Source: Eledone cirrhosa (Eukaryota). From it: a DNA stretch of 64,000 nt. Positions within the stretch are counted from its first letter, which is position 1, and the number at the start of each line of letters is the position of its first letter. Under the pieces are notes generated by a model. It was not told where the DNA came from and searched no databases. It was given only the letters and a program-made list of their open reading frames with translations. The DNA lies in NCBI GenBank assembly GCA_964016885.1, contig OZ024756.1:41788001-41852000 (forward strand), given 5' to 3'. Shown here in pieces: positions 7,595 to 61,119 of the stretch. Position numbers and translations under genes: made by a program.

Positions 7595-8360
7595 TCAGAT
7601 ACACACACACATATATGGTATGCATTTATTTACAGAGATATAAATATTTCTTAACAGTTGGACAGAAAACATTACATCATTTGAATAGTGAATGTAAATA
7701 TTTATGTCTGTGAGTGTGTATATGTGGTATACGTTACTGTATGTATATGTGTATTTGCATGCTTATCTATATGTATATATGTGTGTGAGCTTGTATATAT
7801 ATATATATGAGTTACTGTATATGTGAGCTGCTGTATTTATATGCAAGTTGCTGTATGTGGATTGGTGTAGGTGCCAAATTCCATTCTCTCTATATGTGTA
7901 ATACCAAGAGCATATATAATGCTAGGTGTATATATAACACCAGTGTATATATAACACCAGTGTATATATAACACCAGTGTATATATAACACCAGTGTATA
8001 TATAATACTAGTGTATATATAACACCAGTGTATATATAACACCAGTGTATATATAACACCAGTGTATATATAATACCAGTGTATATATAACACCAGTGTA
8101 TATATAACACCAGTGTATATATAATACTAGTGTATATATAACACCAGTGTATATATAACACCAGTGTATATATAATACCAGTGTATATATAACACCAGTG
8201 TATATATAACACCAGTGTATATATAACACCAGTGTATATATAACACCAGTGTATATATAACACCAGTGTATATATAACACCAGTGTATATATAACACCAG
8301 TGTATATATAACACTAGTGTATATATAACACCAGTGTATATATAACACCAGTGTATATAT

Positions 8361-8548
8361 AATTGTTTCTACTTTTGGCACAAGGCCAGCAATTACTCAG
8401 TGCATTACTGGTACTTTATTTTATCGACCCCGTAAGGATGAAAGACAAAGTCAACCTCGGCGGGATTTGAACTCAGATCGTAAAGGGACGTAACTATGCT
8501 GGAAAGCATGGCGTCCGACCCTCTACCGATACTGCCAATCCACCGCCC
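8361..8548 (-). mobile_element. tRNA-headed SINE (family 1), full length
   Basis: Reverse complement of GGCGGTGGATTGGCAGTATCGGTAGAG...GAGTTCAAATCC...CATCCTTACGGGGTCGATAAAATAAAGTACCAG...GTAGAAACAATT; inserted in the 19-bp minisatellite. Confidence 0.85.
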
Positions 8549-8816
8549 AATCCACCAGTGTATACATAACACCAGTGTATACATAACACCAGTGTATACA
8601 TAACACCAGTGTATATATAATACCAGTGTATATATAACACCAGTGTATATATAACACCAGTGTATTATATATACACTGGTATTATATATACACTGGTGTT
8701 ATATATACACTGGTGTTATATATACACTGGTGTTATATATACACTGGTGTTATATATACACTGGTGTTATATATACACTGGTGTTATATATACACCTAGC
8801 ATTATATATGCTCTTG

Positions 8817-8998
8817 ACGGTGGATTGGCAGTATCAGTAGAGAGTCGGACGCCATGCTTTCCAGCATAGTTACGTCCCTTTACGGTCTGAGTTCAAATCC
8901 CGCCGAGGTTAACTTTGCTTTCATCCTTACGGGGTCGATAAAATAAAGAACCAGTAATGTACTGGGTAATTGCTGGCCTTGTGCCAAAAGTAGAAACA
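8817..8998 (+). mobile_element. tRNA-headed SINE (family 1) with 16-bp TSD attatatatgctcttg
   Basis: A-box-like TGGCAGTATCAGTAGAG, B-box GTTCAAATCC; TSD at 8801-8816 and 8999-9014. Confidence 0.9.
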
Positions 8999-9107
8999 AT
9001 TATATATGCTCTTGGTATTACACATATAGAGAGAATGGAATTTGGCACCTACACCAATCCACATACAGCAACTTGCATATAAATACAGCAGCTCACATAT
9101 ACAGTAA

Positions 9108-9141
<34 letters not shown>

Positions 9142-9487
9142 AGCTCACACACATATATACATATAGATAAGCATGCAAATACACACATACATACAGTAAC
9201 GTATACCACATGTACCACATGTACTTTCCCTGGAGTGTCAGCTGTACTTTTACTAGAAAAGCTACTGACTGGTTTTAGGAATGAAGTAAGTTATTCAATG
9301 CTAACCATTACAATGTAGTCTGTCTCAGATGGTTTAACTTTTAACTACCAATTGACCAGATGGCAGCACCAGTTTCTGAAATATAGGAAATCACTAACCC
9401 CCCTCTCACCCCCACACACCCCCTGAAAAAGAAAAAAAAGAATCAAATCAAATAAAAACAACAACCAAACAGAATACAATTCTTTAC

Positions 9488-9625
9488 CTTCAGGACATGG
9501 TTTTCCTCCATGCTGACTTTTCGGACATGCACACTTTCTCATTCTACTTTCTGTGGCGTCGGGTAAATAACATTTGTCAGGAGAGCAATGAGTCCACTGT
9601 GACCACTGGCACCACTTACCATTAA
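9488..9625 (-). CDS. Properdin-like exon 9: TSR6 N-part ([46 protein letters not shown])
   Basis: WxxWxxW motif, cag/gtaaag boundaries, phase 1/1. Confidence 0.9.
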
Positions 9626-9727
9626 CTGGACACACGGAATAGAAGAAGAAAAGAGAAGAGAAGAAAGAAACATTTTAGATAAGGAATATATGTAGGACTA
9701 TCTCTCGGACTTTTAAGTGCTGAGAAT

Positions 9728-10580
9728 CATCATCACCACCATCACCAGCACCACCATCACCACCATCACCAGCACCACCATCACCACCATCACCAGCACC
9801 ACCATCACCAGCACCACCACCACCACCACCACCATCATCACCATCGTCACCATCACCATCACCATCATCACCATCGTCACCATCACCATCACCATCACCA
9901 GCACCATCACCAGCACCACCATCACCATCGTCACCATCACCATCACCACCATCACCATCACCAGCACCACCACCACCACCACCATCACCACCATCATCAC
10001 CATCGTCACCATCACCAGCACCACCATCACCACCATCACCAGCACCACCACCATCACCAGCATCACCATCACCACCACCAGCACCACCATCACCATCACC
10101 ACCATCACCAGCATCACCATCACCACCACCAGCACCACCATCACCACCATCACCATCACCACCATCACCACCATCACCATCACCACCACCAGCATCACCA
10201 TCACCACCACCAGCACCACCATCACCACCAGCACCACCATCACCACCATCACCACCATCACCACCATCACCATCACCACCATCACCACCATCACCATCAC
10301 CACCATCACCGCCATCACCATCACCACCATCACCACCATCACCAGCATCACCATCACCACCACCAGCACCACCACCAGCACCACCATCACCACCATCACC
10401 ACCATCACCAGTATCACCATCACCACCATCACCATCGTCATCATCATCATCATCACCATCACCACCACCACCACCATCACCATCATCACCATCGTCACCA
10501 TCACCATCATCACCATCACCATCACCACCACCACCATCACCAGCACCACCATCACCACCACCACCACCACCACTACCATC
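9728..10580. repeat. Cryptic (CAC/CAT/CAG)n trinucleotide tract
   Basis: Direct inspection; intronic. Confidence 0.95.
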
Positions 10581-10614
10581 CTCAACAGTATATATATAAA
10601 TATACTGTTAACAT

Positions 10615-10980
10615 CTTGTGTAAGTGAGTGTATATATATATACTGTGTAAGTGAGTGTATATATATATACTGTGTAAGTGAGTGTATATATATACTGTGT
10701 AAGTGAGTGTATATATATATACTGTGTAAGTGAGTGTATATATATACTGTGTAAGTGAGTGTATATATATACTGTGTAAGTGAGTGTATATATATACTGT
10801 GTAAGTGAGTGTATATATATACTGTGTAAGTGAGTGTATATATATACTGTGTAAGTGAGTGTATATATATATACTGTGTAAGTGAGTGTATATATATACT
10901 GTGTAAGTGAGTGTATATATATACTGTGTAAGTGAGTGTATATATGTATATACTGTGTAAGTGAGTGTATATAAATATAC
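10615..10980. repeat. 27-29-bp minisatellite (tactgtgtaagtgagtgtatatata)
   Basis: Direct inspection. Confidence 0.9.
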
Positions 10981-11072
10981 TGTTAACAATTTGTCCCAAG
11001 TGTGTATATATGTTAACATTCTGTACAAGTGTATATATAGATATGTGTATATGTTAACATCCTGTACAAGTG

Positions 11073-11106
<34 letters not shown>

Positions 11107-11154
11107 TGTTAACATCATGTACAAGTATATATATATAAACATTCTGTACAAGTG

Positions 11155-11189
<35 letters not shown>

Positions 11190-11387
11190 GTTAACATCAT
11201 GTACAAGTATATATATATATTAACATCCTGTACAAGTGTATATATATACACTTGTATAAGATGTTAATGACATGTTTATATACACTATATACATATATCT
11301 ATATACACTCACACAAGATGTTAACATATCTTTATATACACTTGTTTAAGATGTTAATGACATCTATATACAGTTGTACATGATGTT

Positions 11388-11802
11388 ATCATCATCACCA
11401 TCATCACCGTTTTACGTCCGTTCTTCCACGCTAACATGGGTTAGACGGGTTGTCCTGTTGTGTGCAGTGTCTGGTCGGCTGACCATGCCTTGCTCATACA
11501 GGAACTGATCTGGCTTGATTTCTACAGCTGGATGCCCTTCCTAACACCAACCTCATTTACAGTGAGTGCTGGGTGCTTTTTCGTGGAGCCTACACGTCCA
11601 CTTTACAGTGTGGGCTGGGTGCTTTTTTGCCGTGGCACCTCCACGACCACCTTGCGGTGGGGGGGGGGGGAGTGGGGGCGTATTGTTTATATGCTTCAGC
11701 ATGTACCCATGGGAGGTCGGGTACCCTGTATTACTGCGTGACGCCAGAAGTCACGGTCGTGTGTCATTGACTTTGAGAGGTGTAGTTGGGTAAGGTCGGC
11801 TT
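11388..11802 (-). mobile_element. 5'-truncated RTE-clade LINE 3' end (family 2)
   Basis: Minus strand reads ADLTQLHLSKSMTHDRDFWRHAV (DL…DRxxWR RTE C-terminus), then a 3'UTR ending …GGACGTAAAACGGTGATGATG. Confidence 0.65.
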
Positions 11803-11803
11803 T

Positions 11804-11835
<32 letters not shown>

Positions 11836-11844
11836 GTCGGCTTT

Positions 11845-11886
<42 letters not shown>

Positions 11887-12059
11887 CTTGTACAGGATGT
11901 TAATATATATATATACACTTGTACATGATGTTAACATATATATATATATATTAACATCATGTACAAGTGTATATAGATGTCATTAACATCTTAAACAAGT
12001 GTATATAGATATATGTTAACATCTTGTGTAAGTGTATATAGATATATGTATATAGTGTA

Positions 12060-14718
12060 TATAAACATGTCATTAACATCTTATACCAGTGTATATAAAC
12101 ACGTCATTAACATCTTATACAAGTGTATATAAACACGTCATTAACATCTTATACAAGTGTATATAAACACGTCATTAACATCTTATACAAGTGTATATAA
12201 ACATGTCATTAACATCTTATACAAGTGTATATAAACACGTCATTAACATCTTATACAAGTGTATATAAACATGTCATTAACATCTTATACCAGTGTATAT
12301 AAACATGTCATTAACATCTTATACCAGTGTATATAAACATGTCATTAACATCTTATACAAGTGTATATAAACATGTCATTAACATCTTATACAAGTGTAT
12401 ATAAACACGTCATTAACATCTTATACCAGTGTATATAAACACGTCATTAACATCTTATACAAGTGTATATAAACACGTCATTAACATCTTATACAAGTGT
12501 ATATAAACATGTCATTAACATCTTATACAAGTGTATATAAACATGTCATTAACATCTTATACCAGTGTATATAAACATGTCATTAACATCTTATACAAGT
12601 GTATATAAACATGTCATTAACATCTTATACCAGTGTATATAAACACGTCATTAACATCTTATACAAGTGTATATAAACACGTCATTAACATCTTATACAA
12701 GTGTATATAAACACGTCATTAACATCTTATACAAGTGTATATAAACACGTCATTAACATCTTATACAAGTGTATATAAATATATGTCATTAACATCTTAT
12801 ACCAGTGTATATAAATATATGTCATTAACATCTTATACCAGTGTATATAAATATATGTCATTAACATCTTATACAAGTGTATATAAATATATGTCATTAA
12901 CATCTTATACCAGTGTATATAAATATATGTCATTAACATCTTATACAAGTGTATATAAATATATGTCATTAACATCTTATACCAGTGTATATAAACATGT
13001 CATTAACATCTTATACAAGTGTATATAAACATGTCATTAACATCTTATACCAGTGTATATAAACATGTCATTAACATCTTATACCAGTGTATATAAACAT
13101 GTCATTAACATCTTATACAAGTGTATATAAACATGTCATTAACATCTTATACCAGTGTATATAAACATGTCATTAACATCTTATACAAGTGTATATAAAC
13201 ATGTCATTAACATCTTATACAAGTGTATATAAACATGTCATTAACATCTTATACAAGTGTATATAAATATATGTCATTAACATCTTATACCAGTGTATAT
13301 AAATATATGTCATTAACATCTTATACAAGTGTATATAAATATATGTCATTAACATCTTATACCAGTGTATATAAACAGGTCATTAACATCTTATACCAGT
13401 GTATATAAACACGTCATTAACATCTTATACAAGTGTATATAAACACGTCATTAACATCTTATACAAGTGTATATAAACACGTCATTAACATCTTATACAA
13501 GTGTATATAAACATGTCATTAACATCTTATACAAGTGTATATAAACACGTCATTAACATCTTATACAAGTGTATATAAACATGTCATTAACATCTTATAC
13601 AAGTGTATATAAACATGTCATTAACATCTTATACCAGTGTATATAAACATGTCATTAACATCTTATACAAGTGTATATAAACATGTCATTAACATCTTAT
13701 ACAAGTGTATATAAACATGTCATTAACATCTTATACCAGTGTATATAAACACGTCATTAACATCTTATACAAGTGTATATAAACACGTCATTAACATCTT
13801 ATACAAGTGTATATAAACATGTCATTAACATCTTATACAAGTGTATATAAACATGTCATTAACATCTTATACCAGTGTATATAAACATGTCATTAACATC
13901 TTATACAAGTGTATATAAACATGTCATTAACATCTTATACCAGTGTATATAAACACGTCATTAACATCTTATACAAGTGTATATAAACACGTCATTAACA
14001 TCTTATACAAGTGTATATAAACACGTCATTAACATCTTATACAAGTGTATATAAATATATGTCATTAACATCTTATACCAGTGTATATAAATATATGTCA
14101 TTAACATCTTATACCAGTGTATATAAATATATGTCATTAACATCTTATACAAGTGTATATAAATATATGTCATTAACATCTTATACCAGTGTATATAAAT
14201 ATATGTCATTAACATCTTATACAAGTGTATATAAATATATGTCATTAACATCTTATACCAGTGTATATAAACATGTCATTAACATCTTATACAAGTGTAT
14301 ATAAACATGTCATTAACATCTTATACCAGTGTATATAAACATGTCATTAACATCTTATACCAGTGTATATAAACATGTCATTAACATCTTATACAAGTGT
14401 ATATAAACATGTCATTAACATCTTATACCAGTGTATATAAACATGTCATTAACATCTTATACAAGTGTATATAAACATGTCATTAACATCTTATACAAGT
14501 GTATATAAACATGTCATTAACATCTTATACAAGTGTATATAAATATATGTCATTAACATCTTATACCAGTGTATATAAATATATGTCATTAACATCTTAT
14601 ACCAGTGTATATAAATATATGTCATTAACATCTTATACCAGTGTATATAAACAGGTCATTAACATCTTATACCAGTGTATATAAACAGGTCATTAACATC
14701 TTATACCAGTGTATATAG
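12060..14718. repeat. 34/36-bp minisatellite (gtcattaacatcttatac[a/c]agtgtatataaacat) with ~1276-bp higher-order duplication
   Basis: Variant pattern and ORF track recur at a 1276-bp offset (12727 vs 14003; 13223 vs 14499). Confidence 0.95.
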
Positions 14719-15086
14719 TTCTGAAACTAGTTTTAGAAGAGTAATGAGAGAAGTTGTACAACTGTTTCAATACAAGACAGTATTGAAAGTAATCCAACCA
14801 ACCAGCCATTTCCAGTTCTTACACAACATGCTAACAACATATTTATATAAACTCTAATATAAGCAATAACATGCTAGCAACATATTTATATAGACTGCGA
14901 CAAGGTAAAACACTTATGCAATTAAAATGGTAAGAATTCTCTTTAGAAATAACAAACCAGCTGCAATTCTGTGTTTATAAAGGAAGTCATCAAAGATGAC
15001 AGAAATAAAGAGAATGTTTTCAAAAGAAACTTGGAATCATGGAATGTATTATATTTAACAAACTCAAGACTTCATTATTTCTGATA

Positions 15087-15275
15087 AAGGGCAGTGGATT
15101 GGCAGTATCTGTAGAGGCTCGGACACCATGCTTTGACACATAGAGTTACGGCCCTTGCCATTCTGAGTTCAAATCCCGCCGAGGTTAACTTTGCCTTTCA
15201 TCCTTACGGGGTCGATAAAATAAAGTACCAGTAATCTACTGATTAATTACTGGCCTTGTGCCAAAAGTAGAAACA
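15087..15275 (+). mobile_element. SINE family 1 with 13-bp TSD attatttctgata
   Basis: TSD at 15074-15086 and 15276-15288. Confidence 0.88.
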
Positions 15276-15540
15276 ATTATTTCTGATAGCAGAGAAACGT
15301 TGTCAACCATTAATTTTCTTGCTTTTATTTATTCACATTCTTCATAGATTTGTCACTAGAAGACTTGTAAGGATAGGCAAGATGGTGAACAATGCCAAAC
15401 AAGACAGGATATTGACTTCCTCCCTCAATATTTGCATCTCGTCATTCACTCATTTCAGGAAAATAATTCATTGGACGGAAGCAATATAAAACATGAACAA
15501 AAAAATCCAAAAAACGTTGGTGTAACTGTCTTCAAGTCTA

Positions 15541-15787
15541 TTAACCCTTTAGCATTTAAACCGGCCATATCCAGCCAGAATTCTCTCACCTCTTTCTGTT
15601 CAAACCTGCTGTAACTGGCCACTCATACTGATATTAAGGTATTGTTCTCAAAAATATAATAACATTGAAATAAATAACACTGAAATCTCATAGATTCGAT
15701 ATTATGCGAGATAATTATGTGAAGTAAAGCCTTTACCACGAAAATACAATAGTATATATATAGAGTAATGTAAATGCTAAAGGGTTA
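15541..15787. mobile_element. piggyBac-type MITE (TTAA-CCCTTTAGCATTTA…TAAATGCTAAAGGG-TTAA)
   Basis: Terminal inverted repeats and TTAA at both ends; related copies at 23815-24005, ~19985-20157, ~50240-50801. Confidence 0.75.
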
Positions 15788-15789
15788 AT

Positions 15790-16060
15790 GCAGGTTAGGA
15801 GTTAGATGACCTCGTGGAGGAGACATTGCTCCAAGGGATGACAAGGGAGATGCACTGGAACAATGACTCCACCTCACAGAGCTCACACTTGCAGGTAGCC
15901 AAGCCAACTCCACTCTGATAACAGTGAGTAGGTATGTAGTCGTGGGGCCAAGAATGCCAAAAATCTCCATTGCCACAGGCTCGACCAGAAACCTATGAGA
16001 GAGCAGCCAATACTTTGACTGCCCTCTCTGGCCTGACAACCAGCAAAGTCTGGGCTGCTA
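15790..16060 (-). mobile_element. Degenerate CRE-like (RLE non-LTR) 3' remnant
   Basis: EPVAMEIFGILG… then frameshifted LFQCISLVI, resembling the P.A.E..G..G…LFQRLS.AIQRGN motif; similar remnant at ~63540-63720. Confidence 0.45.
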
Positions 16061-16317
16061 GCTTCAAAACAAAAAGGTTTCTAATGGTTTTACAATATGA
16101 TTAAACTATCTGTGACCTTCAAGATGAAAGCAAATGATATATGTTGTACTTGAAACACAAACAACTAAATACCCCATGGTGAGATACAGCAACACACACA
16201 CACACACACCTCATTTATTATACACACACATATATATTACACACACACACGTGACTCAAAAATTGAAAAATCAGTTGCTGTTTTAGTTAAAGCATTGAAA
16301 TGACTTTCATTTTAAGA

Positions 16318-17120
16318 ATGTATGTATATGTGGATATATATGTATATGTGGGTATATATGTATATGTGGGTATATATGTATATGTGGGTATATATGTATA
16401 TGTGGGTATATATGTATATGTGGGTATATATGTATATGTGGGTATATATATGTGGGTATATATGTATATGTGGGTACGTATGTATATGTGGGTATATATG
16501 TATATGTGGGTATATATGTATATGTGGGTATATATGTATATGTGGGTATATATGTATATGTGGGTACATATGTATATGTGGGTATGTATGTATATGTGGG
16601 TATGTATGTATATGTGGGTATGTATGTATATGTGGGTATATATGTATATGTGGGTATGTATGTATATGTGGGTATATATGTATATGTGGGTATGTATGTA
16701 TATGTGGGTATATATGTATATGTGGGTAAGTATGTATGTATATATGGGTATGTATGTATATGTGGGTATATATGTATATGTGGGTATGTATGTATGTATA
16801 TGTGGGTATGTATGTATATGTGGGTATATATGTATATGTGGGTATGTATGTATATGTGGGTATGTATGTATATGTGGGTATATATGTATATGTGGGTATG
16901 TATGTATATGTGGGTATGTATGTATATGTGGGTATATATGTATATGTGGGTATGTATGTATATGTGGGTATGTATGTATGTGTGGGTATATATATGTGGG
17001 TATATATGTATATGTGGGTATGTATGTATATGTGGGTATGTATGTATATGTGGGTATGTATGTATATGTGGGTATGTATGTATATGTGGGTATGTATGTA
17101 TATGTTATATGTGGGTATAT
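16318..17120. repeat. 18-bp minisatellite (gtatatgtgggtat[a/g]tat)
   Basis: Direct inspection. Confidence 0.95.
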
Positions 17121-17144
17121 ATATAGGAACGATCGACTTTTTTG

Positions 17145-17345
17145 TCAAATCGGACCGAGGGAACAATGTTTCCGTTGGTCTTTCCAATTGCTAATACTAT
17201 CTATCGGTCGCAACTCCAGGTAGAAGGAGCAACGTGAAATAAAGTGTCTTGTTCAAGGACATAACGCATCGCCTGGTCCAGGAATCGAACTCACAACTTT
17301 ACGATTGCGAATACAATTCTCTAACCACTCAGCCACACGCCTTCA
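17145..17345 (-). mobile_element. Second tRNA-derived SINE family (head GCGTGTGGCTGAGTGGTTAG...GAGTTCGATTCC)
   Basis: A and B boxes on the minus strand followed by a gtccttgaacaagacactt core; related remnant at ~22840. Confidence 0.65.
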
Positions 17346-17498
17346 CTATATATATATGTAAATGTTATATGTGGGTATGTATGTATATGTTATATGTGGG
17401 TATATATGTATATGTATGTATGGTGTGTATGTGTTTATGTATGTATGGTGTGTATGTGTATATGTATGTATGGTGTGTATATGTATGTGTGTCTGTGC

Positions 17499-17545
<47 letters not shown>

Positions 17546-17729
17546 TATGTCAGTATGTACTTGGTGCTTTTCATTGTGACCTCAGCACCTCCTCTCTAAC
17601 ATGAGAAAGGGTCCAGGGAACATTTAATTATAATCCCAGGATGTCCCCCTTACATATGAGGTAGAAGCCCAGGATGCCGCCCCCCCCCCCTTACATATAA
17701 GGTAGAAATCAAAAGAAGCGCTGTCTTAC

Positions 17730-17918
17730 CTGGACAGTCAATATTATTGTAACATTCCCGTTTCTCCATTGATCGGCCCCGACACTGCTTACCGTAATAA
17801 CGGGGTTTAGGTTTTGAACATGTTCGGTGACGTGTTTTAAATCCTCGAATCCCACTACACCTCCGGGCATTACAGCTACCAAACGCACTCCAGTTTGACC
17901 AACTCCCATGGATGGATA
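17730..17918 (-). CDS. Properdin-like exon 8: TSR5 (HGSWSNWSAFGSCNARRCSGIRGFKTRHRTC...CYNNIDCP)
   Basis: TSP1 repeat with extended first loop, 189 nt, phase 1/1. Confidence 0.93.
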
Positions 17919-18499
17919 CTAAAAGATAAAGTGTAAACAGGTGCAATTAATTAACCCTTTCCTCATCATATTTCTAATTAAAGACACTATTTCAATTAAT
18001 TAATGAACATCTTTGAAGAATCTACTAAAATTATTAATTATTTTATTATTAAAATATGGTTCATACATAAAATTATGTTTGAAAATTATAATTTAAATAG
18101 GAACCTTTTAAACTTTACCTGGCCATGTTTCTAATGAAATACACTCTATTTAAATTAATTAAGGAAAAATTTTGAGGAATTTCCTAAAATTATTAATTAT
18201 TTAATTTACTAAGATAGTAACTTAACAAATGGTTTTTTATATGAAATTACCATATATACTTGAATATTAGCTGACCACCCCACCTCACTATTTTATGTCT
18301 GAGAAGTAGACAAAAATCCAAACTCCATTTTATAAGCTGAGGCAGTTAATCACTATATTGTTAAGATGTAGTATAAATAGCAATGAAATTTATTGTGTAC
18401 AGTGCTCAGATGCACTACAACTCATCAAAAGTGCATGTATAGTACATAGAATAATGTACAAATGTCAGGAAAGTGAACAGTGTATGAGTTATGATATAC

Positions 18500-18840
18500 A
18501 CACAAACACACACACATGCATGCAAGTGTTTGGAGGGGGAATATCAGGTGTAATGCTGGTGAATTTCGGGAAGCATGGAAGTTTTGAAGGATGCAATGTC
18601 CCAACAACTGATGCAGGGAGTTTGTTCCATGGAGGTTTTAAAAGATGTAGTGTCCCAACAGCTAACAACTGATGCAGGGAGTTTGTTCCATGGAGGTTTT
18701 AAAAGATGTAGTATCCCAACAGCTAACAACTGATGCAGGAAGTTTGTTCCATGGAGGTTTTAAAAGATGTAGTGTCCCAACAGCTAACAACTGATGCAGG
18801 GAGTTTGTTCCATGCTTCAGCAACTCTGAGCATGAAAAAA
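18500..18840 (-). mobile_element. CR1-clade LINE 3' fragment with internal 61-bp tandem amplification
   Basis: FFMLRVAEAWNKLPASVVSC…SFKTS matches the CR1 RT C-terminal FFxxRVxxxWNxLP…FK motif; 61-bp unit at 18603/18664/18725/18786. Confidence 0.7.
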
Positions 18841-18916
18841 TATAGAAGCTGACACTGCCACCCCTCATTTTCCCATTTTGTTCACATATTCCTCAATTTA
18901 TATCCAAGTATAACCA

Positions 18917-19064
18917 TAGGCAGAGGTGGTGAGAGCAGACCTCAGATCACTGAAACTCGTGGAGGAGATGACGAAGGACCGTGACAAGTGGAGAGATGCT
19001 GTGCTGAATAGGACCCGTCCCACCCTTGCAAGCAGGGAAAAGCGGACGTAAAATGATGATGATG
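18917..19064 (+). mobile_element. RTE LINE 3' terminal fragment
   Basis: AEVVRADLRSLKLVEEMTKDRDKWRDAV followed by a GGACGTAAAATGATGATG tail. Confidence 0.65.
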
Positions 19065-19182
19065 AATATACAGTATGTTGAAAGATTTTAATGATTTGCC
19101 AGCACAGCATCCCTCCAGAGCTGGATACCTTGAGGCCATTTGGTACTCCTCTCACTTTTGGCAATAAAAGCCCTGTTATTAC

Positions 19183-19356
19183 CTGGACAAGCTCTTCGTC
19201 CTCGACATTCTAGCTTCTCTGTTTTCTGTCCTCTACAATAGCTACCACCATGTTGTGGTTTGGGGCTGTTGCATTCCCGGTTTCGAATGCGAAACGCGGT
19301 GCCACATGTAACTGGACATGGATTCCATGAACTCCAAAGAGACCAGCCCCCATCCT
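19183..19356 (-). CDS. Properdin-like exon 7: TSR4 (DGGWSLWSSWNPCPVTCGTAFRIRNRECNSPKPQHGGSYC...CRGRRACP)
   Basis: Canonical TSP1 repeat, 174 nt, phase 1/1. Confidence 0.93.
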
Positions 19357-19426
19357 CTGTAAAAATAGAAAACAACATGTTTAGAAGAATTACCTCTGAA
19401 GACTCTAATATAATAATTAAGTGTAA

Positions 19427-19615
19427 TAATTGTTTCTACTTTAGGCACAAGGCCAGCAATTGCCCAGTATGTATTACTGGTACTTTATTTTACTAACCCC
19501 GTAAGGATGAAAGGTAAAGTTAACCTCCGCGGGATTTGAACTCAGACCGTAAAGGGACGTAACTATGCTGGAAAGCATGGCGTCCGACCCTCTACCGATA
19601 CTGCCAATTCACCGA
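19427..19615 (-). mobile_element. SINE family 1
   Basis: Nearly identical to the copy at 8361-8548. Confidence 0.85.
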
Positions 19616-20289
19616 ATAATAATGATTTCTAATGTAATCAACATTTTATCAGGATTGACAAGAAAAGTTATTAAAGATAATAAAAGTTATTGTCAAAAGT
19701 AGGTAAGGGAGATAACTCCCAAATTAAACTTGACTAAGTATTACAAATATGTTGGAGCAAGAAGTGAGTCTGATCTTCCTCCTGCATATTTCTATTGGAT
19801 ATTTAGTCATATTTCAGAGTTCACTCCCCTGCCACATTTTGAAAATAATTTTCATGAATATAACTTGACTTTTCATTTTTATTTGATTAACCCCTTTATA
19901 TATATACTCCTTTACTCTTTTACCTGTTCCAGCCATCCAGCTGAGGCCATGCTGGGGACCGCCCTTATAATTTTCATGGTAAAGGCTTTTTCTTACATAT
20001 TTATCTCACATAATATCGAACCTATGAGAATTTGATATTATTTATTTTGAGAACAATACCTTAACGTCAGTATGATTGGCCAGTTACAGTCAGTTTAAAC
20101 AGAAAGAGGTGAGAGAATTCTGGCCAGATATGGCCAGTTTAAATGCTAAAAGGTTAAAGATTATTTTCAGCTCACTATATAAAGACTGTCATCCTAGTTT
20201 TAACTACATATTCTTCTTGCAGAAGGCATCCCCAGGAATTTTTTTTTTAATTTTTTTTAAAGTTTTTTTTAAAATTAAGAAAAACTTAC

Positions 20290-20460
20290 GTTGACATTTG
20301 ACTTTGACACACTTTTTTACTTGATAGCTGTTACCTCCACACGGTCTACCTCCATATCTAGGGGCCGGTTTGTCACAAATACGAACCCTTTTCATACTAC
20401 CAACACCACAGCTTGCACTGCACGATGACCAAGGATTCCAGTTACCCCATCTACCATTTA
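20290..20460 (-). CDS. Properdin-like exon 6: TSR3 (VNGRWGNWNPWSSCSASCGVGSMKRVRICDKPAPRYGGRPC...CVKVKCQ)
   Basis: Canonical TSP1 repeat, 171 nt, phase 1/1. Confidence 0.93.
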
Positions 20461-20961
20461 CTGAAGAGGAGAGAAATGGATACAGAGACAGATATAGTTG
20501 TTGTTGTTGTCATTGTTGCTGTTGTTGTTGTTGTTGTTGTGGTAGTTGTTTTGGTGCCTTTTGTCACAACACCATCACTGCCACAATACAGACTGGACTG
20601 GATGCTTTTTTGTCATATCACCATCACTACCCTCTTACTGAGTGGACTGAGCCCTTTATATGGTGGCACCAACACAACCACATTGCAGGCTGGACTGGGT
20701 GATTTTTATTGTGGCACCAACACAACCACATTACAGAGTGGACTGGGAGATTTTGTCATGGCACCCGGGTGAACAGGGTGCTTTTCATCAGATCAGGAAG
20801 GCACACCTACAACTTACATGTGTTAAATTCAAGGGAGATTTGGCTTCTGTTTCTAGCATATCAAGTGACAGTGTTCAGTGATCAGCCAATAAAAACAACA
20901 ACAACAAAAAGAAAAATGAGGCGCTGTGTTTAAAGAAAGGGAAGGAAAAGTTTCAGCTTAC

Positions 20962-21132
20962 CTGGACACGGCTTTGTATTGCAGGCTGTTAACTCTGAAC
21001 TGCTGCCTACACAGTCTTTACCATCATTTGCTGGGGGTGGGAAGTTACAAATACGGCTACGAGAATGTCGACCCCCACCACACGTCATGCTGCACGGCTT
21101 CCATTGGTACCAGGGTCCCCAGTTACCATCCA
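20962..21132 (-). CDS. Properdin-like exon 5: TSR2 (VDGNWGPWYQWKPCSMTCGGGRHSRSRICNFPPPANDGKDC...CNTKPCP)
   Basis: Canonical TSP1 repeat, 171 nt, phase 1/1, tag/gtaag boundaries. Confidence 0.93.
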
Positions 21133-21442
21133 CTACAAAAGACAAGAATTTATATATATATATAACTCATTGTTTATATATATAAACTCATTGTTTATAT
21201 CTATATATATAATTAGAAAGTGAACAACACAAAATATAACTACTCCATTACCAAAGGTTTCTGGATTACAGACGATAATAATATACGCCTGGATCGGTCA
21301 CCAGACAGAGATGTTATGGATAAAAAATATGAAATGAGATTCAAAATCTGTTAAAAATTGAAAGTGAGGCTGGAAAAATAACGGGAAATATACATAAGAA
21401 AAGAAGAGTAAGAAAAATAATATATAAAAGTATATAGCAATA

Positions 21443-21505
<63 letters not shown>

Positions 21506-21690
21506 TCATCATCATCGTATATGAGTAAAACTCAGTCTCCTGTCTAACCCATGCTAGTGTGGAAAATGGACGTTAAACGATGATGATATAAATATATATG
21601 GGTTGTTTTGTTTGAGACGACCAGAGCTGGTCTTGGAGAGGTTGGCATGAAAAGGGTTAAACAGACCGAGTCTTAATAATTGTTTCTTAC

Positions 21691-21846
21691 CTGGACAGTA
21701 ACTTTTTAACATACATGGCTGGAAATGGCGGTTCCGATAATCAGTCGGCTCACATGTAGGACACTGTCGATACTTTGACCGCCATCCAGCACCACATGTA
21801 ACAGTACACTCAGTCCATTCTCCCCAGGGGGCAAGGGTAGGCTTCA
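21691..21846 (-). CDS. Properdin-like exon 4: TSR1 (PWGEWTECTVTCGAGWRSKYRQC...CMLKSYCP)
   Basis: WxxWxxCxxTCG and RxR motifs; phase 1/1; tandem tagcag acceptor. Confidence 0.9.
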
Positions 21847-22364
21847 CTGCTAGAAGAGAAGAGGAGAAAAATATATACTTTTTTTAAAATACTGCATGTC
21901 GTTTAGTAATGTGTAAACATACATACACACACACATATATATATATATATATACACACATATGCATGAAAATGTGTGTGTATTTATATATATATGGAAAA
22001 TGCGTGAGATCCTTAGTACAGTAAGGTATATTTGAAAAAAGGAAAAGAATGACTTCAATTGTAGTTGTTATTCTATAACAATTTAATTCTATAATTTTGT
22101 TATGTAGATCATATATGTTGGGCGGAAAGGTGTTTTAAAATCCTGGTTAACATTCTGAAGAACTTTCTCATTCGTCGGTGGCGATTGTCAAACTGATCTA
22201 AAATGATAATTTGGGTGTGTGTCTGGGAAACCACAAATTATGACAGTACTCTATGTATGGGAAGAAGCAGAGTAGGTATAGAGAGAGGTAAAATCCAACC
22301 ACGATGCCAAGTGGTCTCAGCTTGTATTCAGCAAACCTTCTCAGAACACATAAAAACAACTTAC

Positions 22365-24804: not shown

Positions 24805-25524
24805 TGTATTTTCAACTTCTGTTCCCTATATTTTTACCCGTGTAGGATATATTAAATAAACCTTACTTTCGAATATATATATTTATACATACATGTGCAC
24901 AACTGATGTACATATATATATATATATAAATCAGGATGGATTTAGTTTGAAACTAGTTAGACCATTCCTCAACAGAGTACTCAATACTTGGCGTAGTAGA
25001 GTATGGTTTACGCCCCTTTACGAGCTGAGTTCAAATCTCGACGGGGTTAACTTTGCCTTTCATCCTTACGAGGTCGACAATAAAGTACCAGTAATTTACT
25101 GGGGTAATTGCTGACCTTGTGCCAAAAGTAGAAACAATTATAAAAAGTCGAGACCCGGACTGCTGAGTTCTTGGCTTTTGAAACGGCAAGAGCTCAGCCT
25201 TCGGGGTCCTGACTCTTTATAATATATATACATGTAAAACAAGATCTTTATATAAAGAACTTGTTATAACGGCTTGTAACTCCTTCATTCTTTTACTTAT
25301 ACCTGCTCCGCTTGAACAATCTAAATATTAAATCTTCCTCTAATATTTAACTCTGCTAACCCCAGCATTGAGCACACTGCTTCGGCTATTGGCCTTTAGT
25401 AATCTGATCACACCTCTGTATCTCTCTGCTTCTTCCTCTCCTACGATACTTATACCCTATTATATACACACACACACATACACAGACATATATATATATA
25501 TATACAGTATATATATATATATAT

Positions 25525-25725
25525 AACGAAGGAAATGTGGTAAGGAACCAGGTGGACCATAACGCACCAAAGTACTCAATACTTAGGGTAGTAGAGTGGG
25601 TAATAGGAACGAGTAGGACCCCGACGGCTGAGCTCAAGCCGTTTCGACGGCTAATTCTGGACTCAGTCCAGAATTAGCCGTCGAAACGGCTTGAGCTCAG
25701 CCGTCGGGGTCCTACTCGTTCCTAT
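25525..25725. mobile_element. Penelope-like fold-back mini-element in (TA)n (perfect 61-bp-arm hairpin)
   Basis: Arms 25603-25663 and 25665-25725 are exact reverse complements; homologue at 57780-57980. Confidence 0.6.
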
Positions 25726-35712: not shown

Positions 35713-37338
<1,626 letters not shown>

Positions 37339-37465
37339 GTTTATCCAGGGTTCAATCGGGGGTAACCACAGTAGGTAAGGTACTCAATACATAGCAGAGT
37401 ATAAAATTATAATATAGAAATGGCTTCTACAGGACTAGAACTGTTTCATTCGGGAGAAATCATCA

Positions 37466-37516
37466 GGCTTCCTGATGATTTCACCCGAATGACACAGTAC
37501 TGGTCCTGTAGAAGCC
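37466..37516 (+). ncRNA. Type I hammerhead-ribozyme-like motif inside fold-back element 37339-37526
   Basis: GGCTTC-CTGATGA-stemII-GA(C)A-CAG…CTGT-A-GAAGCC; stem I 6 bp, stem III 4 bp, GUA triplet; the opposite arm retains GAAA. Confidence 0.5.
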
Positions 37517-37556
<40 letters not shown>

Positions 37557-37705
37557 AGAGAGAGAGAGAGAGAGGTAGAACACTGGAAGGTAATATCCGT
37601 AGTGGTAGAGCACTCAGTCCATGGGACGAGTTTGGTAGAAGTGGTAACACAACAGTTAGTTCACCATACCGAGAACAATTGTTTCACCTTAGAGGATCTT
37701 CAGTA

Positions 37706-37744
37706 TGAGCTGAAGATCCTCTAAGGTGAAACAATTGTTCTTGG
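37706..37744 (+). ncRNA. Minimal hammerhead-like motif inside fold-back element 37574-37777
   Basis: CTGAAGA-TCCTCTAAGGT-GAAAC-AATT-GT-T, palindromic loop III. Confidence 0.5.
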
Positions 37745-37775
37745 TATGGTGAACTAACTGTTGTGTTACCACTTC

Positions 37776-37807
<32 letters not shown>

Positions 37808-37828
37808 TATATACACACACACACACAC

Positions 37829-37859
<31 letters not shown>

Positions 37860-37932
37860 TATATACACACACACACACACACATATATATACACACACAC
37901 ACATATATATACACACACACACACATATATAT

Positions 37933-37992
<60 letters not shown>

Positions 37993-57779: not shown

Positions 57780-57784
<5 letters not shown>

Positions 57785-57972
57785 AAAAAGTGTCACCCTG
57801 ACGGCAGAGCTCAAACCGTTTCGACGGCTATTTCTGGTTTTAGTCCTGAAATAGCCGTCGAAACGGCTTGAGCTCTGCCGTCGGAGTCATACTTTTTCCT
57901 ATTTCCCACTCTACTACCCTAAGTATTGAGTACTCTGGTACGTTATGGTCCCTCTGGTTCCTTACCACAATT

Positions 57973-57980
<8 letters not shown>
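57780..57980. mobile_element. Penelope-like fold-back mini-element, homologue of 25525-25725 in opposite orientation
   Basis: Same hairpin and unique tail (ctaagtattgagtac…ggttccttaccac), flanked by (TA)n. Confidence 0.6.
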
Positions 57981-58006
<26 letters not shown>

Positions 58007-59806: not shown

Positions 59807-59888
59807 GGTAGCGTGGCCGAGTGGTCTAAGGCGCTGGTTTTAGGCACCAGTCTCTTCGGAGGCGTGGGTTCGAATCCCATCGCTGCCA
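59807..59888 (+). tRNA. tRNA-Leu(TAG)
   Basis: 82-nt cloverleaf GGTAGCGTGGCCGAG...GGTTCGAATCCC...CGCTGCCA, anticodon loop TT-TAG-GC, long variable arm, downstream poly-T. Confidence 0.97.
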
Positions 59889-60314: not shown

Positions 60315-60396
60315 GGTAGCGTGGCCGAGTGGTCTAAGGCGCTGGTTTTAGGCACCAGTCTCTTCGGAGGCGTGGGTTCGAATCCCATCGCTGCCA
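60315..60396 (+). tRNA. tRNA-Leu(TAG), identical second copy
   Basis: Same 82-nt sequence, followed by a T-run terminator. Confidence 0.97.
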
Positions 60397-60740
60397 CACT
60401 TTTTTTATTTATTTATTATATTAACAATTCCTCTCTCGTTATAAAGCAGTAACTAGAATCAATTATACTAGATCCCTGTTTATTGCAGCACCTAACATTC
60501 TGAGGTCAACCTTCAGCGTCAATAAATGGACAAATTATCGATCTAGGGAAGTGGAATAGTTAGACTTTTGGATAGTAAACATTATAGTTGAGGGTTAGGT
60601 TTAAAAGTTCTTATATATGTACATATATATATGTATATATATATACATATGTATATACATATATATATAATAGTCAGTTTATGAACTTTTCAACCTAACC
60701 CTCGACTATATATATATAGTCGAGGGTTAGGTTGAAAAGT

Positions 60741-61119
60741 TCAATATATATATATATATCAATATATATATATATATATATATATATATCAATATATATA
60801 TATATATATATATATCAATATATATATATATATATATATATCAATATATATATATATATATATATATCAATATATATATATATATATATATATCAATATA
60901 TATATATATATATATATATCAATATATATATATATATATATCAATATATATATATATATATCAATATATATATATATATATCAATATATATATATATATA
61001 TATATATCAATATATATATATATATATATCAATATATATATATATATATCAATATATATATATATATATATATATATCAATATATATATATATATATATC
61101 AATATATATATATATATAT

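Follow-up and report, generated by a model that had tools for sequence, protein, structure and literature searches.

Element B (37575..37777) is likely to represent two 5'-truncated end-pieces of one high-copy repeat, which were placed head to head in a microsatellite by a single insertion event of the reverse transcriptase (RT)/endonuclease of a Penelope-like element (PLE) encoded elsewhere. Taken by itself, the locus is a dead insertion of an ordinary sort. The window analysed is a stretch of 64,000 nucleotides from Eledone cirrhosa; it consists of animal DNA with abundant microsatellites and contains thrombospondin-repeat exons as well as two tRNA genes. Element B and its flanks are composed of the following parts:

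37522..37574, no strand: left microsatellite, (TA)n then (GA)n, between element B and its neighbour A
37575..37635, minus strand: tail present on the long arm only, lying between the family's two 3' ends, with TGAGTGC at 37610-37616
37636..37703, minus strand: left (long) arm; its 5' end is C3 of the hammerhead core, and the 5' strand of helix I is missing
37704..37709, plus strand: loop TATGAG (family form TACGAG), six true upstream bases on the right arm and 5' strand of helix I
37710..37777, plus strand: right (short) arm, ending at the short 3' end of the family, in (TA)n
37776..37990, no strand: right microsatellite, (TA)n/(CA)n

A preliminary description of this DNA reported 68-bp inverted arms with one mismatch around TATGAG, beginning exactly at CTGAAGA, and both statements are confirmed. 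The arms (37636-37703 and 37710-37777) are 68 bp long, differ at a single position (G37671/T37742), enclose a 6-nt loop and both start exactly at CTGAAGA, while no comparable inverted repeat longer than 13 bp arose when the stretch was base-shuffled 300 times. The left arm is extended by a tail of 61 nt (37575-37635) that has no mirror on the right and was absent from the preliminary description. The two pieces have lengths of 74 and 129 nt; both are 5'-truncated and neither contains an ORF. The arm mismatch and the difference between the loop and the family form (TATGAG versus TACGAG) look like CpG transitions, and the upstream sequence of the family on the left strand differs from the loop. 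No target-site duplication was readable, the flanks of element B being microsatellite; such duplications are likewise described as hard to read in PLE insertions in passages of PMC8557442.

The repeat family of element B was followed in sequencing reads. Four of ten listed runs (X1, X8, X6 and X5) were mapped onto the left half of the element (37574-37709); X1 is possibly the source sample and hence not independent, and X6 derives from another organism. The family is abundant: X1 yielded 4640 contigs, X8 8890 out of 12.5 million reads, X6 1080 contigs and X5 a single contig. It possesses two discrete 3' ends, a long one at 37575 (491 X8 reads, 54 X1 contigs, 77 X6 contigs) and a short one at 37636-37639 (1291, 406 and 382 X8 reads), both of which pass into (TA)n or (GA)n in three of the four runs (X1, X8 and X6). 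The short and long ends lie 68 and 129 nt downstream of the CTGAAGA core and coincide with the outer ends of the short and the long arm of element B. Beyond 37703, a common upstream sequence ending in TACGAG is present in 1274 X8 reads (depth around 1470), 61 X1 contigs and one X5 contig. Since the family reads continue upstream at this position, the loop of element B represents six bases of genuine upstream sequence. The upstream sequence of a second subfamily (1023 reads) ends in ACCGAG and shows a pyrimidine-rich stretch followed by CAG at the 5' end of helix I, seen in loose ends behind 37691. By its sequence, this could be a splice acceptor; the CAG resembles the situation in D. virilis Penelope, where an intron end has been mapped to helix I, according to passages of PMC4209133.

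Most family reads at 37703 are not folded back, which indicates that the fold-back is made per insertion. This weighs against a MITE or fold-back DNA transposon that moves as a palindrome, a reading suggested by the long inverted repeat, the TA flanks and the high copy number. In addition, the tail lies outside the repeat and on one side only, the listed joints differ from one another and from that of element B, and two third-family fold-backs (C1 and C2) are centred differently, so that this alternative is largely refuted and has very little probability left. Palindromes are also a known artefact of assembly and library preparation. Such an origin could be suspected as no joint identical to the junction of element B was found among the read joints listed and as the X1 depth over the loop (37704-37708) is 253, compared to 114,848 just before it; low depth is, however, expected for a junction present at a single locus. 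Moreover, the arms differ at a CpG and end at two different natural ends of the family, the loop is true upstream sequence, and the same window contains older fold-backs whose arms differ by several mismatches, which makes an artefact extremely improbable. Tandem (go-back) joints of the family were also missing among the joints listed, besides which there are 322 weaker loose ends. The arms are identical at 67 of 68 positions, although only 193 of the 8890 X8 reads are at least 99% alike to element B, and both carry a base at +11 that accounts for at most around 0.2% of the X1 depth. The arms therefore stem from one source or were homogenised later.

In the proposed mechanism, the enzyme would nick both strands of the (TA)n/(GA)n target, and each nick would prime reverse transcription at one of two fixed RNA start sites, of which the one 129 nt downstream of the core would give the long arm and the one 68 nt downstream the short arm. 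The two cDNAs would stop early, in element B at +1 and -6, and their ends would be joined. In some families, the stops near the 5' edge of the hammerhead are probably caused by an RNA start at this site or by drop-off of the enzyme at the structure, and not by ribozyme cutting. Passages of the PLE literature describe an inverted 5'-truncated partner, a one-sided tail of 30-40 bp and (TA)n targets (PMC8557442, PMC3846280). For a PLE protein in vitro, cutting and extension of both strands are reported in parts of PMC11167929, along with two RT start sites inside the element RNA by which the tail is defined, and hammerhead activity was not needed, as hammerhead mutants left the insertion products unchanged. 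The PLE-type origin put forward in the preliminary description is thus backed by the architecture but not by an ORF: no RT/endonuclease ORF was seen for family B, so PLE membership is deduced, and a Pfam search with the 100 longest out of the 246 complex reading frames in the window found no RT or GIY-YIG domain.

Fold-backs of this kind were also collected from metagenome contigs with a pattern of an inverted minimal hammerhead, 0-30 nt and a second core, which gave 112 loci in 4 of 64 parts (around 2000 estimated for all). At least 37 of these loci are true head-to-head fold-backs, a count in which the threshold missed some diverged cases and a few of the 112 are duplicates, compared to 0 of 120 loci obtained with a slightly looser pattern in viral contigs. 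Together with nine fold-backs from the flanks, 46 were available in 18 groups. Among the 32 with an evaluable tail (14 of the 46 were not evaluable), the tail is located on one arm in 26 cases and on both arms in none; it was not detected in six, of which three have no reference tail and one is borderline. The absence of two-tailed fold-backs fits two cDNAs, one from each start site. Among 28 fold-backs, the long arm reaches further upstream in 12 and the short arm in eight (p=0.50), with six ties and two unclear cases; that either arm can reach further fits two separately primed cDNAs.

Alternatively, a single cDNA could fold back and prime its own second strand, with the hairpin tip trimmed later, as was proposed for Adineta vaga Penelope on the basis of such junctions in passages of PMC3846280. 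Near-identical arms fit dual priming and snap-back with loss of the hairpin tip alike. The rare allele common to both arms is in line with self-priming, as are the loop-free, perfect short palindromes at several metagenome junctions (L129, L203, L215, L218 and L225). However, the long arm as first cDNA should hold the loop sequence, which in element B is held by the short arm; the long arm does not reach significantly further upstream in the 28 fold-backs, and many spacers come close in length to two separately truncated ends added together. Self-priming is therefore regarded as improbable, and dual priming by a PLE-type enzyme is preferred.

Coding sequences in the metagenome loci were screened with a regular expression, which flagged two of 307 frames of at least 110 aa. 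At locus L156, which belongs to another family and another organism, a related kind of minimal hammerhead unit is located directly behind an RT-thumb-like/GIY-YIG-like ORF, the last part of which resembles GIY-YIG proteins from eukaryotic clusters that also carry RVT_1. From this resemblance and from sequence motifs, the ORF is read as that of a putative PLE. Pfam gave no name to the frames of L156 and L191, and GIY-YIG was assigned in L125 only (1 of 25), which is not a fold-back locus. Locus L157 (4496-5350) contains tandem 122-nt hammerhead-bearing units followed by an inverted partial copy, hence a retrozyme-like array with a PLE-type inverted end. In the L226 family (27 copies), the sequence common to the copies ends at a T-rich run within about 20 nt upstream of the core; this family is a candidate for a short non-autonomous parasite of PLEs, with an RNA that would start at the T-rich run.

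Within the window, four further fold-backs share the layout of element B:

37339..37523, no strand: neighbour A, tail 37339-37414, arms about 37415-37467 and 37471-37523, 5 nt between the cores
25527-25724: third-family (C) fold-back in (TA)n, long and short arm
57782-57981: third-family (C) fold-back in (TA)n, long and short arm
25140-25222: third-family (C) fold-back in (TA)n, long and short arm, displaced tail 24927-25002

Neighbour A is more diverged than element B. The preliminary description regarded the two as unrelated in sequence and as independent families, which is not borne out: their long arms are collinear (129 versus 130 nt) and share the word TGAGT(A/G)C at 81 and 88 nt from the core, and the alignment score of the long arms was reached by only 7 of 1000 shuffles, so that A and B appear to be distant relatives. 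All three third-family fold-backs are centred 0-21 nt upstream of GAAA, and those at 25527-25724 and 57782-57981 at 19-21 nt, the position at which the core starts in A and in B. No CTGANGA was readable in any of the three; the hammerhead status of this family is therefore that of a candidate at most. Its GAAAC-GGC-palindromic loop-GCC-GTC would provide a candidate 5-bp helix III. The stretch 25160-25170, considered as a family C core, was rejected, as it belongs to the left arm of another fold-back. In the copy at 24927-25222, the long arm is interrupted by a dispersed SINE-like repeat.

Each of the five window fold-backs with this layout combines a long arm with a short one and abuts (TA)n; a self-comparison of the window gave no such fold-back with long symmetric arms. 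Together with the ends of family B, the flanks of these five elements support shared targeting, in agreement with the accumulation in (TA)n/(GA)n sites claimed earlier. The word TGAGT(A/G)C occurs at 37610-37616, 37380-37386, 25572-25578, 57927-57933, 24977-24983 and 536-542. In the tails of the three families, as well as in an isolated tail-like piece at 536, it precedes the (TA)n junction by 35-50 nt. It is a candidate for a protein-binding or RT-start signal and was found in 0 of the 37 metagenome fold-backs. The word GAG(C/T)GC is present in seven of these 37 (1.3 expected); it was rejected as a general signal, since nearly all occurrences share one offset and hence likely come from one family.

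Further features were noted in the window. Perfect inverted arms of 25 bp around (TA)6, with TAACCC-like words and a third copy nearby, are found at 60682-60743 and 60583-60610; as the centre is the microsatellite, this is a fold-back of a different kind. A 209-bp inverted repeat (93%) at 8337-9026, with its centre near 8680, includes a dispersed SINE-like repeat and a minisatellite. Two tRNA genes (59807-59888 and 60315-60396) have identical sequences in the Rfam alignments and lie 508 bp apart. At least six frames on the minus strand at 9348-21883 match thrombospondin type 1 and are likely exons of one gene.

The right arm of element B and its loop harbour a hammerhead-like motif:

37704..37749, plus strand: type I hammerhead-like motif, with core 37710-37716, helix II 37717-37727 and GAAA 37728-37731
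37732-37738, plus strand: helix III with palindromic AATT, part of the motif
37739 and 37740, plus strand: predicted cut after U37739; 3' strand of helix I from 37740

The string CTGAAGA-T-CCT-CTA-AGG-T-GAAA-C-AATT-GT-T of the preliminary description is found at 37710-37739, with the hammerhead core bases CUGANGA (37710-37716), GAAA (37728-37731) and UH (37738-37739). The U…U closure of helix II, said to be common to element B and neighbour A, is indeed T...T in both sequences. The CCT/AGG helix II is present in element B, but its third pair is private to this copy: helix II consists of U.U plus 2 bp in most family copies and has 3 bp in element B, and at 37693 another base is present in around 98% of the X1 depth (267,904/272,908) and in 1,582 of 1,690 X8 reads. 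Helix III of the family motif consists of 2 bp and the palindromic AATT loop. This tetraloop on helix III means that the motif does not have the strict "minimal" form that had been attributed to it. The upstream variants of family B pair with the 3' strand of helix I over 4, 5 and 6 bp, with one-sided changes only, and this pairing supports helix I; in element B, helix I comprises four pairs, two of them wobble, and exists in the right arm only. The G10.1-C11.1 pair in helix II, described as typical of PLE minimal hammerheads in passages of PMC4209133, is absent from the motif of element B. For the axolotl HHR_Amex2, parts of PMC7229834 likewise describe a helix II with U.U at its base, together with a tetraloop and a helix III of 2 bp. 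Rfam reported no hammerhead at gathering score in the window and none among 42 matches to E=10 in 37330-37790; sub-threshold matches to microRNA precursors merely reflect the hairpin of element B.

As a monomer, the hammerhead fold of element B has a predicted energy of +4.4 kcal/mol. The perfect palindrome AACAATTGTT is predicted to form a homodimer duplex of -14.8 kcal/mol, and the palindromic helix III/loop ACAATTGT, present in element B, is dimer-compatible by this predicted duplex. For read-through RNA of the element, a hairpin of -124.3 kcal/mol (z -25) is predicted. The argument that such hammerheads act as dimers does not apply at this locus: the two motifs are located on opposite strands, so that a dimer in cis cannot form, and read-through RNA folds into the hairpin. 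With its motifs antisense to each other, a left motif that lacks helix I and the strong hairpin, this copy of element B is predicted to be inactive as a ribozyme.

The preliminary description further claimed that the inversion occurs just 5' of the catalytic core through a mechanism shared between families. Such a ribozyme-directed process would make the hammerhead fold, or a loop-III dimer of two RNAs, the stop signal for reverse transcription; we consider this unlikely. Several observations speak in its favour. The cores are 5 nt apart in A and 6 nt in B, the 5' end of the right arm of element B falls within the 5' strand of helix I, and the palindrome AACAATTGTT has its predicted homodimer. 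In all four opposite-strand read joints listed for family B, one side is located at 37702/37703, with +14, +34, +49 and +51 each paired with +1/+2; these joints are, however, biased, as the mapping reference ended at 37709 and as breaks in the X8 reads fall on the AATT site. Reads of family B that run past the core are also numerous. In the L226 family, the sequence shared by the unbiased single copies from the flanks extends no more than 20 nt upstream of the core in all four cases. Centres near the core were found in all five window cases compared to one of six fold-backs found without selecting on spacing (Fisher p=0.015), although three of the five lack a recognisable CTGANGA and the p value for A and B alone is 0.11.

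The six unbiased fold-backs have spacers of 0, 43, 80, 132, 166 and 383 nt, so that five of them have 43-383 nt between the cores, and two copies of one family in a single contig (L182) have spacers of 30 and 166 nt. Left out of this count were L173, L202 and L175 (arm scores of 12 or less), L157 (tandem array) and L168, as well as L206 (202 nt), L221 (106 nt), L140 (111 nt) and L191/L192, which had been caught via a chance second core. In the metagenome set, where the pattern forced a window of 0-30 nt, spacers range from 2 to 30 nt and do not pile up at 0-6 nt: five of the 37 measure up to 6 nt, where an even spread would give 8.4. A broad hump of spacers is compatible with these data, provided that the ends of the individual arms lie 0-20 nt upstream. 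The predicted cut site (+31) was rejected as the junction, since none of the arm ends of A and B and none of the four read joints fall there. The insertion products of hammerhead mutants in vitro (PMC11167929, in part) also argue against a ribozyme-directed stop. Thus, inversion just 5' of the core holds for A, B, the three third-family fold-backs and the four read joints, but not as a general rule. The bias of breakpoints toward the motif looks real, is modest and depends on the family, with a size that rests on six unbiased cases. A literature search, with subscription papers mostly outside its reach, retrieved no report of junctions clustering at the hammerhead edge.

The role of the hammerhead in PLEs and the formation of their inverted insertions are named as open questions in passages of PMC8557442. 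PLE-type stumps are easy to count and therefore allow two tests. One concerns the tail, which was found on both arms in 0 of 32 cases; the other concerns the crowding of 5' ends near the motif, which is seen in some families and not in others. If this crowding depends on the fold rather than on cutting, PLE hammerheads would gain a function. As a speculative proposal of low probability, the folded PLE hammerhead would have a non-catalytic job and set where two oppositely primed RTs stop and are joined, possibly as a loop-III dimer that holds two template RNAs. If this were true, thousands of tiny palindromes with one long and one short arm would be the footprint of a dimeric two-template insertion complex.

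The architecture of element B is already known, and the element joins the published PLE-type head-to-head insertions. Like element B, endonuclease-bearing PLE insertions with pLTR and tail are described, in passages of PMC8557442 and PMC3846280, as head-to-head inverted copies with the tail at one end, a (TA)n target without readable duplication and a hammerhead near the 3' end. In contrast, the tail of element B measures 61 nt instead of 30-40, and its copies are cut to 74 and 129 nt and lack an ORF. The Anolis Poseidon PAc, as described in parts of PMC11167929, has two RT start sites that lie downstream of the hammerhead region at a distance of roughly 110-150 nt and define the tail in a similar way to element B, and the cutting and extension of both strands of an AT-rich target can be likened to the insertion proposed here; however, the ORF of PAc starts in helix II, whereas by inspection no long frame starts there in element B. 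The core bases, short helix III and palindromic loop are shared with type I hammerheads of PLEs and animal retrozymes, and opposite-strand hammerhead pairs 100-700 bp apart have been described in Schistosoma (PMC4209133, PMC7229834, in part). Compared to these hammerheads, the putative one of element B lacks G10.1-C11.1, has a helix II of 2 bp in most copies and is not tandem, and its motifs are mutually antisense. Non-LTR retrozymes are likewise non-coding, carry a type I hammerhead and are probably moved by PLEs, according to passages of PMC7229834 and bioRxiv 10.64898/2026.07.22.740005; they consist of tandem units of 170-400 nt, whereas element B is not tandem and the best-supported ends of its family enter (TA)n.
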